Shown in pieces: positions 20,950 to 27,722 of a stretch of DNA of 64,000 nucleotides. The stretch is from a virus (lineage: Duplodnaviria; Heunggongvirae; Uroviricota; Caudoviricetes): positions 61,995 through 125,994 of the IMG/VR virus record IMGVR_UViG_3300033463_000016, one strand, 5' to 3'. Within the stretch, counting starts at the first letter, position 1; the number at the start of each line of letters is the position of its first letter. Under the pieces are notes generated by a model that saw only the letters and a list, made by a program, of their open reading frames with translations, ran no database searches and was not told the DNA's origin. A program made the position numbers and the translations under genes.

Positions 20950-21738
20950 TTATTCTCCGATGTATATAAGATTGTCTATGTAATTGCGACCTTCAGCCTT
21001 GAAAATGGGAATTTCGTTATCAATGACCCATTCGCTTCTGCCGGTATGTTCATCCACCTTCTTAACGCAACAACTACCTCGCTTGAACTGCGTCGGGTAG
21101 TTGTTCCAATTGATACCCTTTTCAAGCATCAGCATATCCTGGATTTCACTTGTGGATTTCTTATATAACTGTTTATCGGAGTAGTAAGCTCTACCGACCA
21201 TTTGGATTGAATTGCGTGTAGCATCCTGCTGCCGCCAAAGAATGTTGTTACAAACTTCCTCTTTTGGTATGTTGAAGATTCTGGCGTCGAACATTGCGCC
21301 TTTTGATACGGCATTTTTAAGAGTAACAATGTATTTTAATTCTTCAACAGAATTATACGCGAGAGAGTAGACAATATTTCCGAATAAACGGTTAAATGCT
21401 ACTGTAGCCATACTCGCGGCAATGCTTGCGCATTTTTGAATGTTATAATCGAACCAAGATGTAGTATCGAGGCTCTTATAATCCACCAAAACGAGAGTAA
21501 TTTCATCTGATTGAGTATATCCGAGGACGCAGCCCTGAATATTCTTGCATAAATATTGCATAGTGCCTTGCATAGTTTTAGCAAGGACTTCATCAAATGG
21601 TCGTTTAAATCCACGTGTGAAAGAGTGAAAACACTTACCATCGATCCGAATGATCGCGGGCGTTCTGGTCGTGAGATGTGTTCTTGTTACGAACTCATAC
21701 TTTTTCATTCTCACGTCAAATGAACTATACTTTTTCAT
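20950..21738 (-). CDS. Thg1-like protein (tRNA-His guanylyltransferase / 3'-5' polymerase family)
   Basis: IIRIDGKCFHSFTRGF and GYTQSDEITLVL match Thg1 motifs (RLDGRNFHRF; YGQSDEYSFVF); 262 aa. Confidence 0.7.
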   Translation of the reverse strand: MKKYSSFDVRMKKYEFVTRTHLTTRTPAIIRIDGKCFHSFTRGFKRPFDEVLAKTMQGTMQYLCKNIQGCVLGYTQSDEITLVLVDYKSLDTTSWFDYNIQKCASIAASMATVAFNRLFGNIVYSLAYNSVEELKYIVTLKNAVSKGAMFDARIFNIPKEEVCNNILWRQQDATRNSIQMVGRAYYSDKQLYKKSTSEIQDMLMLEKGINWNNYPTQFKRGSCCVKKVDEHTGRSEWVIDNEIPIFKAEGRNYIDNLIYIGE

Positions 21739-21862
21739 TTTGGTTTCCTTTCTGTTTTAGGTGGGGGCGTTTTTCAGCTTTCGCCAATCGAGGAAACGCC
21801 CCAAAACTCTTACAACAACAACGCGAACAACTTGTGTAGAAAGCGCTATTCTTGCGCTCTCC

Positions 21863-21939
21863 TGGTTGCGGGAGCAGGACTCGAACCTGCGACCTTCAGG
21901 CAATGAACCTGACGAGCTGACCATCTGCTCCATCCCGCA
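21863..21939 (-). tRNA. tRNA-Met/Ile2 (anticodon CAT), CCA encoded
   Basis: Manual fold: acceptor TGCGGGA/TCCCGCA, D-arm GAGC..GCTC, anticodon loop TTCATTG, T-arm GCAGGTTCGAGTCCTGC. Confidence 0.8.
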
Positions 21940-22152
21940 ATATTTAGTTGTGTTGTAAGGAATAGGTCAACATCACCTTACTGTATGGACTCTAACCATC
22001 TTATCTCCACTTCGGACAAACACCATTCCATATGCCCTTATGTTCTGGTACTATTCCTTGTCATCGGTCTATAGGTTTTCCTCCTCAACGGGCGAGGTGT
22101 CCGGCGCTCTCCGCAGGTCGTTGCTCACCTTTTGGGAACTGCACTTCCCTCA

Positions 22153-22872
22153 CTACTTCGTGCAGAAAGTAGTTGGCAAAAGGTACACTTTTTCGTGTAC
22201 CGTGGTGCTGGTGGTGGGACTCGAACCCACACGGTTTCCCGTAGCATTTTGAGTGCTATGCGTCTGCCAATTCCACCACACCAGCATATTTGGCACGCCG
22301 TCGAGGAATCGAACCCCGCACCTACAGATTAGAAATCTGCTGTTCTCTCCGGCTGAACTAACGGCGCAAATTACTTTTTTCTTGGAAAAAAATATCAGGA
22401 ATCCTGCAATCGCAATCATCAGGACTATTACGATATATACGGTTGATCGATCTCCCGTTTGAGGCGATACAATACTTTGATTTCTGACAGGAACGGCTTT
22501 CTCATAAACGCCACTTTCAAAGGTAGCAATCGCTATAACATCTGATTTTGGGCGGATCGTGAAAACCAATTCATCGTAATTGCCTGAAATAATATCGTAG
22601 TCATCCGCTTTGATATTCCAAAACGCGAACTTCTCATCGGTTTCAACTGCTGTAAAAGTGCAAGTATAGCCGCTTTCAACTTCAATCTTATTCGTATCAC
22701 AACTCGCTTGTCCCGAACCGAGAACAGAAGTTTCAACAGAGTAATAATTGATCGGTAGAGGACTCTGTTGGGCGTTTGCCGAAAATGCGGCTATACTACA
22801 CACCGAAAATATAAACAAAACAATAGTAACAATCTTTTTCACGGTTTTCTCCTTAAATGATTCAAGCATCAA
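22153..22872 (-). CDS. Secreted / C-terminally anchored protein (ORF reads through into tRNA genes)
   Basis: Signal peptide, about 120-aa ectodomain, TM plus KKK stop-transfer at about 22377. ORF has no stop until 22153, i.e. runs through tRNA-Arg and tRNA-Leu, so true 3' end is uncertain. Confidence 0.45.
   Translation of the reverse strand: MMLESFKEKTVKKIVTIVLFIFSVCSIAAFSANAQQSPLPINYYSVETSVLGSGQASCDTNKIEVESGYTCTFTAVETDEKFAFWNIKADDYDIISGNYDELVFTIRPKSDVIAIATFESGVYEKAVPVRNQSIVSPQTGDRSTVYIVIVLMIAIAGFLIFFSKKKVICAVSSAGENSRFLICRCGVRFLDGVPNMLVWWNWQTHSTQNATGNRVGSSPTTSTTVHEKVYLLPTTFCTK
22203..22285 (-). tRNA. tRNA-Leu (CAA), long variable arm, CCA encoded
   Basis: Acceptor GCTGGTG/CACCAGC, anticodon loop CTCAAAA, variable arm CGGGAAACCGTG, T-loop GGTTCGAGTCC. 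Confidence 0.85.
22291..22367 (-). tRNA. tRNA-Arg (TCT), CCA encoded
   Basis: Acceptor GCGCCGT, anticodon loop TTTCTAA, T-arm GGGGTTCGATTCC. Confidence 0.8.
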
Positions 22873-23539
22873 CCGACCGCGACCAGTCCTACATTACGCC
22901 TAAACACTGTTAGTTGGTTTGCGTAGCCACTCCTGTACGATAACAATTTATCCACGCCTCAGACCAATCGAATATTTACTTTACAGTCAGTTGATGCCGT
23001 CACCACCGCAATCTTTCGCTCCTATTAAAGCCGTAAACTACACCCAATGCGTAATCATTGGTTAAGGTTAAATTGATTACTCGCTTGCGCTATTCATTTA
23101 CTCGTTTACGCCACAATTAATGCTCGCTTATTACGTACCCCGATCTGACGTGTCGGTAGAGCCATAACGCCGGAATAAATGTCTGATAGGTGTCAGCACC
23201 GAATGGCTGTATATCATTTCAAACCAAACAGAGAGTGTCGCTTCTCATTTATCCAGATGTTGCCGAGTGCCTTCAGCAATAGGAGCAGCACCCACGCTCA
23301 TTTGCTAACGAGGACTTTGCAAAACAAGGAAACCTTGTCCATATCTCATTACTAACCCTTGCCCCGCCTATTTTCGCAGCGAACAACATTCAATTTTATT
23401 TTTAGTGAACTTTCTCACGGTTGGGGCAGTATGAAAAACATATACGTCTTGACAATATAGGTTTTTCAGAACTGTTCCGCGTTTTCGGTATTCACTGTGA
23501 CGGACGTTTCCGAACCGACCTAATGCGCGATTAGGATGT

Positions 23540-23634
23540 TGGCGACAGCCCCCGGACTCGAACCGGGACACCGCCTCTCGACGATTACTCGTAGTTTTCA
23601 AGACTACTCCCTTGCCAATTAGGGTTAGGCTGCC
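23540..23634 (-). tRNA. tRNA-Ser (TGA), long variable arm, CCA encoded
   Basis: Acceptor GGCAGCC/GGCTGTC, anticodon loop CTTGAAA, long extra arm, T-arm CCCGGTTCGAGTCCGGG. Confidence 0.8.
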
Positions 23635-23726
23635 AGATTGCCGGTCTTTCCCGGCTGCCATCGAAGGAGCTTTTCAATGAAAACATAACCCATTGAATCA
23701 CGAAAAGTTCCGACCATTAAGATCGG

Positions 23727-23803
23727 TGGTGCTTTGTACTGGATTTGAACCAATGTTACGCGATTATCGGTCGCGTGTACTAACCAAACTGTACTAACAA
23801 AGC
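23727..23803 (-). tRNA. tRNA-Ile (GAT), CCA encoded
   Basis: Acceptor GCTTTGT/ACAAAGC, D-arm GTAC..GTAC, anticodon stem CGCGA/TCGCG with loop CCGATAA. Confidence 0.75.
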
Positions 23804-23890
23804 GTGTTGTCGGTCTGTTCCCGACTGTCATTTCGTCTTTCCGAAAAGCCAAAACAGAAATGGGGTGTTAAATGATTGCTACTGCAATCC

Positions 23891-27079: not shown

Positions 27080-27147
27080 TTGGGTCGAATGCGGGAGTTT
27101 AACCCGCCCTTCTGCGATTGCAGTGTGCAGCAATACACTTATTCGAC
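27080..27147 (-). ncRNA. D-arm-containing, anticodon-truncated tRNA-like element (CAGCAAT box in opposite orientation in D-loop)
   Basis: Acceptor GTCGAAT/ATTCGAC, D-arm GTGT ATTGCTGC ACAC, mini stem-loop CTGC AATC GCAG in place of anticodon arm, T-arm GCGGGTTAAACTCCCGC. Confidence 0.4.
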
Positions 27148-27216
27148 TAAGTAACTTGCTGTTGATGTCTTATCATTCTATTATATCGTCCAGTTGGACG
27201 TTATAACCATATTTAC

Positions 27217-27315
27217 AAGGCTCGTTATGACACTGCCTGATGCTCTCCCTGCTGAGCTACAATCGCCATACGGCGAACGATAGGACTCGAACCTATGACT
27301 CTCTGGTTTTCATAT
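27217..27315 (-). ncRNA. CAGCAAT-box tRNA-like RNA, copy g
   Basis: 5' AAGGCTC TAACAGCAATTTTATATG ... ATAGGTTCGAGTCCTAT ... GGCGATTGTAGCTCAGCAGGGAGAGCA ... GAGCCTT 3'; closing stem AAGGCTC/GAGCCTT. Confidence 0.5.
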
Positions 27316-27385
27316 AAAATTGCTGTTAGAGCCTTATTTTCAACAATAAAATTGGTATTTGATTGTCATTTCATTTTCAAAAATC

Positions 27386-27491
27386 AAGACACTTTCGCGT
27401 ACCCATTAGGGTTTGAGGGACTCGAACCCTCTGAAATTAACTTTCCATAGTTGATTTGTTATCCATATCGTAAAATTGCTGTAAGTGCCTT
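27386..27491 (-). ncRNA. CAGCAAT-box tRNA-like RNA, copy h
   Basis: Begins 3 nt after tRNA-Lys CCA: 5' AAGGCAC TTACAGCAATTTTACG ... GAGGGTTCGAGTCCCTC ... GTGTCTT 3'. Confidence 0.5.
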
Positions 27492-27494
27492 ATG

Positions 27495-27569
27495 TGGTGC
27501 GCGTGATGGGAGTCGAACCCAACTAAGCACGATTAAAAGTCGTGTGCATAGCCGCTTTGCTACACGCGC
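27495..27569 (-). tRNA. tRNA-Lys (TTT), CCA encoded
   Basis: Acceptor GCGCGTG/CACGCGC, D-arm GCAA..GCAC, anticodon stem CACGA/TCGTG with loop CTTTTAA, T-loop GGGTTCGACTCCC. Confidence 0.85.
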
Positions 27570-27574
27570 ATATA

Positions 27575-27648
27575 TAGCGAGTACAAGGAGTCGAACCCTG
27601 TTTCCCCACCCGTTTCGGAGTAGCGCAATTCCGATATACTAACTCGCT
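27575..27648 (-). pseudogene. tRNA-like gene without a foldable anticodon arm
   Basis: Acceptor AGCGAGT/ACTCGCT and T-arm CAGGGTTCGACTCCTTG present; no 5-7-5 anticodon stem-loop can be formed; abuts next tRNA. Confidence 0.4.
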
Positions 27649-27722
27649 TGGAGGGTGGTATAGGATTTGAACCTATCCTGAAAGTGCCACAAACTAACGT
27701 GCTACCGCTACACTAACCACCC
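27649..27722 (-). tRNA. Probable tRNA-His (GTG); no genomically encoded G-1; CCA encoded
   Basis: Acceptor GGGTGGT/ACCACCC, D-arm GTGT AGCGGTA GCAC, anticodon loop TTGTGGC with weak 3-bp stem, T-arm ATAGGTTCAAATCCTAT; base preceding +1 is T. Confidence 0.5.

Follow-up and report, generated by a model that had tools for sequence, protein, structure and literature searches.

A Thg1-like protein encoded at the end of a phage tRNA array is a candidate general tRNA 5'-end repair enzyme, beside a tRNA-His gene that lacks G-1 and C73

A stretch of 64,000 nucleotides from a virus of the class Caudoviricetes (IMG/VR record IMGVR_UViG_3300033463_000016, positions 61,995 to 125,994; hereafter, the window) carries a gene for a Thg1-like protein (TLP; 20950..21738, minus strand) and, in the adjoining tRNA gene array, a tRNA-His(GUG) gene without an encoded G at position -1 (27649..27722, minus strand). 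What would such a phage use the enzyme for? An initial annotation, made from the sequence alone, had offered two alternatives: the supply of G-1 to this tRNA-His, or the repair of tRNAs with damaged 5' ends. Repair was found to be the better supported of the two, while the supply of G-1 was weakened because (i) the protein is of the bacterial TLP class and the discriminator base of the tRNA, U73, templates A-1, a reaction about 60-fold poorer than that opposite C73 in the Bacillus thuringiensis TLP (BtTLP); (ii) the closest relatives encode G-1:C73, and others have no tRNA-His within 10 kb; and (iii) the TLP genes of phages Fnu1 and Bcp1 are not next to tRNA genes. Our reading, to which we give somewhat better than an even chance, is that the TLP is most likely a general enzyme for templated repair of tRNA 5' ends, acting on all tRNAs and not on tRNA-His in particular.

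The TLP gene encodes 262 residues from an ATG start, with the Shine-Dalgarno-like sequence AAAGGAAA located 8 nt upstream. The protein matched the Pfam Thg1 family (PF04446; E-value 3e-30; 105.3 bits against a cut-off of 29.2) over profile positions 3-130 of 130, and PHROG 4717, "tRNA-His guanylyltransferase" (E-value 2.9e-89). Pfam Thg1C scored 21 bits, under its cut-off of 26.3; residues 126-240 of BtTLP align in this part of the protein nonetheless. The closest solved structure was BtTLP (4KGK/4KGM), which aligned over the full length at an E-value of 3.6e-59, followed by an archaeal TLP (8.6e-11) and the eukaryotic Thg1 enzymes (1e-10 to 2e-6). When an AlphaFold2 model of the protein (pLDDT 84.5, pTM 0.85) was compared with the PDB by Foldseek, the BtTLP chains 4KGM/4KGK ranked first (E-value 4e-24, TM-score 0.85), Thg1 and archaeal TLP came next, and the top 32 matches were all Thg1 or TLP; beyond these two, no PDB match fell under an E-value of 0.03. 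The model, as placed by Foldseek, has the polymerase-palm-like fold with a C-terminal domain. Membership of the superfamily was further judged by the carboxylates D29, D76, and E77 of hTHG1, equivalent to D30, D75, and E76 of BtTLP, and by a GTP-binding arginine (R28 of BtTLP). In BtTLP, D30 and D75 coordinate two Mg2+ ions, R28 helps to bind the incoming GTP, and E76 lies beside R28. The phage protein has R31 and D33 within the motif RIDG and D78 and E79 within QSDE, the equivalents of R28, D30, D75, and E76 of BtTLP, and all four residues were unchanged across 37 homologues. The motifs from which the initial annotation had read a Thg1 signature are these catalytic motifs, and the family matches bear that assignment out.

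Which branch of the superfamily the protein belongs to bears directly on its possible substrates. The anticodon-reading motif HINNLYN was not found in the phage protein: where yeast Thg1 has an aspartate followed by THINNLYN, the phage protein has D172 followed by ATRNSIQM, and BtTLP has an equivalent segment. In Thg1, H154 of this motif stacks on the anticodon base G36; TLPs do not read the anticodon and recognize the shape of the acceptor and T arm, not tRNA identity (PMC6471195). The likeness to BtTLP extends to about 47% identity over the aligned parts, the same fold, the same catalytic R/D/D/E set, and a common segment, WRQQDA(S/T)(K/R)NSI, that stands in for HINNLYN. The eukaryotic Thg1 enzymes (yeast, human, Candida) are of the same superfamily, with the same fold and catalytic carboxylates, but are only 17-26% identical to the phage protein and carry the HINNLYN motif that it lacks. 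From BtTLP the phage protein differs in being phage-encoded directly behind a tRNA array and in having a hypervariable insertion of 20-30 residues (residues ~120-147) in place of a short disordered loop. We class it as a bacterial TLP because it is far closer to BtTLP than to Thg1 and has HINNLYN replaced by ATRNSIQ; the ORF encodes a TLP of this class, a family of template-dependent 3'-5' RNA nucleotidyltransferases, with an intact active site, and not a bona fide Thg1. Since HINNLYN and its H154 are absent, the TLP is not expected to select tRNA-His or to add a non-templated G-1.

The reactions of BtTLP indicate what an enzyme of this class can do. In adding G-1 opposite C73 it has a kcat/KM of 5500 M-1 s-1; the value is 108 for G-1 when A73 is the template and 94 for A-1 when it is U73 (PMC3061083). 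Addition is Watson-Crick templated; BtTLP is able to add any nucleotide at -1 and rescued a yeast thg1-delta strain, and it prefers the N+1 fill-in of 5'-truncated tRNAs, whatever their identity (tRNA-Phe included), over addition at N-1 (PMC3061083). By analogy with BtTLP, the phage TLP would activate the 5'-monophosphate end of a tRNA with ATP or GTP and would then fill in the missing 5' nucleotides of the acceptor stem, with the 3' strand (positions 72, 71, and on) as template. The tRNAs restored in this way would be those whose 5' ends had been nibbled or mis-processed during infection. Two TLPs of Dictyostelium, with proven roles on tRNA 5' ends, provide precedents: in mitochondria, DdiTLP2 adds G-1 to a tRNA-His and DdiTLP3 repairs edited tRNAs (PMC6471195). 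The latter is a precedent for general repair, and the former, a TLP that adds G-1 physiologically, for a phage TLP that completes its tRNA-His; however, DdiTLP2 has C73 as its template where the phage tRNA has U73, and the substrates of DdiTLP3 have encoded 5' mismatches, a pattern not seen in the phage tRNAs.

The position of the gene places it with tRNAs as a group. ARAGORN called 17 tRNA genes, 16 of them with an encoded CCA, in an array at 21863..31095 on the minus strand, the same strand as the TLP gene, and 124 nt separate the last tRNA of the array (Met, 21863-21939) from the TLP start codon; in this phage lineage the TLP gene closes the tRNA-array unit. For comparison, 66 viral loci were fetched through the TLP, and closer relatives were added by exact-protein look-ups (loci are cited below by number, as in L008). 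A same-strand tRNA lay less than 1 kb upstream of the TLP gene in 19 of the 35 loci with at least 60% TLP identity, and the gap from array to TLP was 27-750 nt in nearly all loci with at least 65%. The state of tRNA-His varied across these loci, as follows: (i) G-1:C73 was encoded, with U1-A72, in L078/81/82, L001, L002/3, L004, L007 (the same as L068 of Ruminococcus sp. YE282), and L044/72; (ii) G-1 stood opposite A73 in L048 and in Fusobacterium phage Fnu1; (iii) U-1 was combined with U73 in the window and in L008; and (iv) no tRNA-His was found within 10 kb of the TLP gene in L005, L006, L011, L014, L069, and L079/80. The TLPs closest to that of the window (80-81% identity) are those of L078/L081/L082, all with a G-1:C73 tRNA-His; identity was 81% to L078 (G-1:C73), 76% to L079 (no nearby tRNA-His), and 71% to L008 (U73). 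Since the TLP is kept both with G-1:C73 relatives and with arrays that have no tRNA-His nearby, it is retained regardless of a need for G-1. The TLP is therefore tied to tRNA arrays, not to the missing G-1. We read the tRNA-His without G-1 and C73 as a variant particular to its lineage, at a -1/73 position that is labile, and not as the reason for the enzyme.

Is this tRNA-His what it appears to be? The gene at 27649-27722 was called tRNA-His(gtg) by ARAGORN and scored 54.1 bits against the Rfam tRNA model (gathering 29), and direct reading gave T at position -1 (27723), a G1-C72 pair, U73 as the discriminator, and an encoded CCA. The His assignment and the T at -1 given by the initial annotation held up when this check was run; U73 was absent from that annotation, which named the missing G-1 only. 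The window tRNA-His has neither half of the bacterial G-1:C73 pair, and Clostridia-type hosts are expected to require G-1:C73. The 5' register was examined through the leaders of 141 distinct non-His tRNAs from 13 related loci, in which A-4 was present in 85%, T-3 in 71%, A-2 in 78%, and T-1 in 82%; a G at -1 was found in none of these 141 non-His tRNAs of the phage clade. This pattern resembles the preferences of bacterial RNase P, which favors U at -1 and, in Firmicutes, A at -4. The bases directly before G1 of tRNA-His are AAAT in the window and ATAT in L008, and relatives with a canonical tRNA-His have ATAT, then G-1, then U1. Because the clade leader motif stands directly before G1, the 5' register is sound and the mature window tRNA-His should start at G1; the ATAT leader looks RNase P-optimized and would mark the processing register. 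Two other foldings were tried and rejected. When G27722 was taken as G-1, U8/A9, the D stem, and the T stem were broken and UCCA was left in place of CCA, while an 8/4 cloverleaf would have U8.U65 as its eighth pair, against a T stem (AUAGG/CCUAU) of 5 pairs.

With G-1 and C73, the two classical determinants of bacterial histidyl-tRNA synthetase (HisRS), both missing, the tRNA(GUG) might instead be drifting out of use or have changed its role, being poorly charged or uncharged and serving as a processing signal or a decoy, with its proximity to the TLP gene a coincidence. Two U.U mismatches in its anticodon stem, U27.U43, present also in L008, and U28.U42, found in the window only, are in keeping with such decay, as are the absence of tRNA-His from the arrays of many relatives and the degenerate tRNA-like sequence, unrecognized by Rfam, that follows the gene without a spacer. 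We consider this explanation improbable, as the gene has intact acceptor, D, and T arms, the invariant bases of the D arm and anticodon loop and the RNase P-type clade leader motif are retained, and the U73 form persists in three diverged lineages. The acceptor stem, GGGUGGU/ACCACCC, has no mismatch and is better paired than those of the relatives, where U.U mismatches occur at 4.69 and 5.68 in L001-L007 and at 4.69 in L008 (U4-A69 and G5-C68 in the window). In an alignment of ten phage tRNA-His genes, 91% of the cells fit the cloverleaf and changes on both sides were found in 16 of 22 pairs, a count reached by 0 of 500 shuffles; these changes cover 7 of 7 acceptor pairs and 5 of 5 T-stem pairs. 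From these sequences we read the window tRNA-His as a gene that is probably maintained, with a small chance of decay. The adjoining tRNA-like sequence (27575-27648, minus strand), called Arg(acg) by ARAGORN, begins immediately behind the CCA of tRNA-His and has no CCA of its own, an A at position 33, no clade leader motif, and no counterpart in L008. One possible role for it is to direct processing of the tRNA-His 3' end.

A maintained tRNA-His of this kind bears on the alternative that the TLP matures it. After RNase P leaves G1, the enzyme would add position -1, as an A templated by U73 or as a wobble G; the N-1 would provide the 5'-phosphorylated nucleotide for a standard bacterial HisRS, and the presence of the TLP would have allowed the G-1:C73 pair to be lost. 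We rate this explanation as unlikely, and as slightly less likely again the claim that the TLP is the maturation enzyme of tRNA-His whose A-1 or wobble G-1 renders the tRNA chargeable by a G-1-dependent host HisRS. The tRNA does look functional without G-1 and C73, given its Rfam score, its perfect acceptor stem, and the both-side changes of the ten-gene alignment. The combination of U-1, G1-C72, U73, and CCA was also kept in L008, which is TLP-positive, and in L084/L085, a third U73 lineage that was found by a pattern search and whose loci are too short to show their TLP status; when JGI metagenome contigs were scanned with the 5' half of the tRNA-His, no new U73 lineage was found and L008 was recovered again. 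A terminal G:C pair was present in all ten aligned genes, either as G-1:C73 above U1-A72 (5 genes; for example, L001 3861-3935, L002 4264-4338, L004 4248-4321, and L007 2700-2773, among the canonical genes of L001-L007) or as G1-C72 with an unpaired 73 (5 genes), in strict alternation. Outside the alignment, L230 breaks this alternation with G-1, U1-A72, and A73. Positions -1 and 73 are, moreover, unusually labile in TLP-carrying phages, which have C73, A73 (L048 and Fnu1), or U73, and the efficiency of BtTLP for A-1 opposite U73 is similar to that for G-1 opposite A73, which sufficed for the yeast thg1-delta rescue.

Each of these points has to be set against others. The template in the window tRNA-His gives A-1, not G-1, at the low efficiency given above; the TLP has no anticodon-reading motif; in the closest relatives the TLP goes together with an encoded G-1:C73 or with no nearby tRNA-His at all; and no residue in the alignment sets the TLPs of the U73 and A73 phages apart. 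Among 45 distinct viral tRNA(GUG) genes, 28 had G-1/C73 and 3 had U-1/U73. A tRNA-His without G-1:C73 was found in 4 of 10 TLP-carrying lineages compared with 7 of 35 loci of unknown TLP status (odds ratio 2.7, Fisher p 0.23), and as the 10 lineages were ascertained through the TLP they form a biased sample; an association between the TLP and a tRNA-His other than G-1:C73 was rejected on both counts. Relatives independent of the TLP were sought with the downstream metallophosphoesterase as the query, which returned 3 loci only. One of them, L230, has G-1 with A73 and no TLP within 13 kb, the locus being cut at the end of its contig. Phages of alpha-proteobacteria, hosts for which G-1 is dispensable, are in addition already known to carry tRNA-His genes that lack G-1 and have A73 or U73 (Mukai et al. 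2017, PMC5389517). The window tRNA-His shares with them the lack of G-1 and differs from the phage (8/4) tRNA-His (PMC5389517) in its 7/5 acceptor/T architecture and in lacking A73/U72: this alpha-proteobacterial pattern was not found in the window tRNA-His, which has C72 and U73, and was seen in the viral loci L166 and L182. When the tRNA-His was searched by blastn against 50,697 phage records, no match was found at an E-value of 1e-3. Overall, the link between the missing G-1 and the TLP is a tenuous one.

The 5' pairs of the phage tRNAs were also inspected. The unusual first pairs pointed out by the initial annotation were present: the Met and Gln tRNAs of the window begin with U1-A72, and Arg-tct, Ile-tat, Leu-taa, and Arg-acg begin with G1.U72. 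None of these is a mismatch, each being a standard or a wobble pair, and in the 16 CCA-ending tRNAs of the window acceptor pairs 1-3 are standard or G.U. Among 183 tRNAs of the clade, of which 164 encode CCA, 27 had G1.U72 (15%), 28 had U1-A72, and 18 had A1-U72. Most of the 5' oddities flagged in this count trace back to tRNAs for which no 3' end could be assigned; a few are real, such as an A.A first pair in the tRNA-Met of L001. Editing of 5' ends of the mitochondrial type was rejected, as no encoded pattern of 5' mismatches was found in pairs 1-3 when the 183 clade tRNAs were counted by position. Rfam placed 14 of the ARAGORN tRNAs above the gathering score, and two calls, Ser-tga and Arg-acg at 27575-27648, had no Rfam match. 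Three weak Rfam tRNA-like matches without an ARAGORN call (31-33 bits) were also recorded at 30401-30471, 30857-30913, and 27083-27147 on the minus strand, at least one of them falling inside one of the repeated modules described below. In related arrays, a tRNA-like gene with a UUA anticodon was labeled "Stop" (L008, 12843-12915) and one with UCA was labeled "SeC" (L004, 190-261); these are possible suppressor tRNAs.

The array also contains RNAs other than tRNAs. A gene for transfer-messenger RNA (tmRNA) lies inside it at 29447..29935 on the minus strand (Rfam RF00023, 87.5 bits, E-value 1e-32, full model); it is 489 nt long, about 115 nt beyond the model, and was not called by ARAGORN. Within it, at 29639-29731, Rfam also reported a wcaG RNA match above gathering (48 bits). 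At least eight repeated modules were found in two clusters of the same family on the minus strand: cluster A at 27062..27493, with module starts at 27493, 27337, 27173, and ~27061 and covarying closing stems, and cluster B at 23830..24364, with starts at 24364, ~24307, 24227, 24114, and 23967. The modules have a common 23-nt start, AUAAG(G/A)CNC..CAGCAAU(U/C)UUA, and the end of each complements its own start, in closing stems that covary between modules (GGCAC/GUGUC, GGCUC/GAGCC, GACAUC/GAUGUC, GACGC/GCGUC, and AUACCC/GGGUAU). Several modules present a T arm, a closed acceptor-like hairpin, and a D arm in that order, the permuted tRNA order of the Y-RNA-like YrlA, and the Rfam YrlA model gave a weak match at 27209-27326, its 27.6 bits (E-value 0.014) being well under the gathering score of 69. 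The gene immediately downstream of Y-like modules (25327..26853, minus strand) encodes a DUF2828/DUF7788 protein (Pfam E-values 1e-40 and 1e-30) that belongs to PHROG 850, "RNA-binding protein" (E-value 1e-124); no sequence match to it was found in the PDB. This protein may be a Ro/TROVE-like partner of the adjacent modules. The module motif also flanks the DUF2828 gene in L004, while most relatives have a protein of ~740 residues (PHROG 33734; 4025-6238 in L078) in the DUF2828 position.

These RNAs could be the substrates instead, with the TLP acting mainly on tRNA-like RNAs of the island, or on RNAs there that are not tRNAs, for instance the Y-RNA-like modules or the tmRNA, whose 5' ends it would extend or repair. 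TLPs recognize acceptor and T-arm shape over tRNA identity, Dictyostelium DdiTLP4 is suspected to act on non-coding RNAs, and the modules and the tmRNA all lie in the array unit of the TLP. Nonetheless, the DUF2828 gene was found in only 4 of 73 TLP loci, most relatives with a TLP having no DUF2828 gene, and the acceptor-like stem of the permuted modules is closed by a loop and has no free 5' end. We regard this explanation as very improbable, even more so than decay of the tRNA-His.

General repair of tRNA 5' ends, our preferred explanation, has points that weigh against it as well. A source of 5'-truncated tRNAs is not known in bacteria or in phage infection, and for no bacterial TLP has a physiological substrate been established (PMC3061083). 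Neither an RNA ligase nor a polynucleotide kinase was found when about half of the larger ORFs of the 64-kb window were scanned. No promoter-like or terminator-like consensus was found on the minus (coding) strand between the tRNA-Met and the TLP gene, and we infer co-transcription of the TLP gene with the array solely from this absence of consensus signals. The 4 of 10 lineages compared with 7 of 35 loci also leaves room for a side role related to tRNA-His. More broadly, the analysis shows the family and class of the TLP, its intact active site and fold, the gene order with its conservation, and the state of tRNA-His in the window and its relatives, and we infer the activity of the TLP, its substrates in vivo, its co-transcription with the array, and a role in counter-defense.

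All genes from 16 to 37 kb are on the minus strand. The array region holds a gene for an RNA 2'-phosphotransferase (Tpt1/KptA; 27983..28513; PF01885 E-value 1.1e-47; PHROG 5470 E-value 3e-74), which scored 235 bits against NCBIfam NF002014 (cut-off 239). An SPFH/Band-7 (flotillin-like) protein is encoded at the upstream edge of the array (31167..32831; PF01145 E-value 1.5e-16); its match to NCBIfam FloT, at 206 bits, was under the cut-off. Within the clade, 7 relatives likewise have an SPFH gene upstream of their arrays, a further match in L037 (27%) being weak and distant, and in phage Fnu1 the second gene after the TLP gene encodes a prohibitin. On its other side the TLP gene is followed by a conserved block: (i) a small ORF; (ii) a protein of 264 residues between the TLP and the phosphoesterase (19917..20711), with homologues after the TLP in 10 related loci and no match in Pfam, PHROG, or NCBIfam; (iii) a metallophosphoesterase (19076..19843; PHROG 1649 E-value 3.5e-33), which follows the TLP in 15 related loci and is annotated Metallophos in L078-L082; and, further on, (iv) a DHH/DHHA1 phosphoesterase (17640..18569; PHROG 4771 E-value 1e-41; Pfam DHHA1; 13 related loci) and (v) another phosphoesterase (16026-16628). 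Adjoining the island at 32971..36631, also on the minus strand, Pfam identified a four-gene block for nicotinamide adenine dinucleotide (NAD) salvage, comprising NAD synthase, an NAMPT/NAPRTase-like protein, a PRPP-synthetase-like protein, and an isochorismatase-family (nicotinamidase-like) protein. The block resembles the phage NAD-reconstitution sets that have been described as counter-defense. It stands in the same window as the NAD-using Tpt1 and LigA (8219-10249). Taken together, the island would serve to keep translation running, through its CCA-encoding tRNAs, tmRNA, Tpt1/KptA, DUF2828 protein and Y-RNA-like modules, SPFH protein, and phosphoesterases, with NAD salvage adjoining, and it fits the published picture of phage gene sets for RNA repair and translation protection (PMC7824862).

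How new such an enzyme is in phages was examined next to the claim of the initial annotation that phage Thg1-like proteins are rarely discussed. They are experimentally uncharacterized, as no experimental work on a phage TLP was found in full-text literature searches, and phages and viruses are never mentioned in the 2019 review of TLPs (PMC6471195). They are, on the other hand, widely annotated: of 50,697 deposited phage genomes, 162 gave a TLP homologue by tblastn, and most of these homologues carry the label tRNA-His guanylyltransferase. The protein of Bacillus phage Bc431v3, gp143, was described in 2013 as the product of a "highly unusual gene" and proposed to modify phage or host tRNAs (PMC3601020), and a comparative study of 2021 described Thg1 as a sporadic enzyme of jumbo phages that restores tRNA 5' nucleotides, listing it among phage RNA-repair nucleotidyltransferases beside tRNAs, KptA, TROVE proteins, and NAD salvage (PMC7824862). 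The members of PHROG 4717 from cultured phages include Bc431v3 gp143, Bacillus phage G gp378, and Fusobacterium phage Fnu1 gp147, all from large phages and 45-50% identical to the window TLP. In Fnu1 and Bcp1, in contrast with the window clade, where the TLP gene is fixed at the 3' end of the array, the gene is not adjacent to tRNAs: no tRNA gene was found within ~17 kb in Fnu1 or in a 40-kb stretch in Bcp1. Elsewhere in Fnu1 (L093, NC_055035), at 2635-3137 on the minus strand, ARAGORN called tRNAs for Pro, Ser, Tyr, Cys, and His, five genes that are not in the RefSeq feature table for that stretch. The gene of the window is a new member of a known and annotated phage TLP family, and its tRNA-His is a rare but not unprecedented variant.

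As to the phage itself, a megablast search of 19-32 kb against the 50,697 phage records gave no match, and the phage therefore has no close cultured relative. An identical TLP is encoded on a 171-kb contig of the phage, and the nearest TLP homologues in bacterial assemblies were those of Ruminococcus sp. YE282, a Clostridia metagenome-assembled genome, and an Oscillospiraceae metagenome-assembled genome. These matches point to a large phage that infects Clostridia of the gut or rumen, with probable hosts in the Oscillospiraceae or other Clostridia. Several features elsewhere in the window were recorded in passing. An S-adenosylmethionine (SAM) riboswitch aptamer was detected at 49681-49799 on the minus strand (RF00162, 47.1 bits against a gathering score of 44.4). 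The protein encoded at 245-1450 (minus strand) is adenylosuccinate-synthetase-like (PF00709 E-value 3e-28), far under the PurA cut-offs and with a faint match to PurZ (35 bits, cut-off 300); a PurZ-like role in making modified adenine is a possibility. Two ORFs about 800 nt apart, 5723-6235 and 7041-7790 (minus strand), appear to be the halves of a split C5 cytosine DNA methylase, with a zinc ribbon in the N-terminal part, and a transporter of the major facilitator superfamily is encoded at 12139-13377 (minus strand; PF07690 E-value 3e-26).

The substrates of bacterial and archaeal TLPs in vivo have been unknown since 2010. A phage clade with the TLP at the end of its tRNA array and with a tRNA-His that varies from G-1:C73 to A73, to U73, or to none nearby is a natural comparison set, one that could tell general tRNA repair from the completion of tRNA-His. 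If the TLP did prove to mature the tRNA-His, no earlier case of post-transcriptional N-1 addition would be known from a virus of bacteria, and a bacterial-type TLP would for the first time have a physiological substrate; it would also account for the drift of positions -1 and 73 among C, A, and U in the phages that carry the enzyme.

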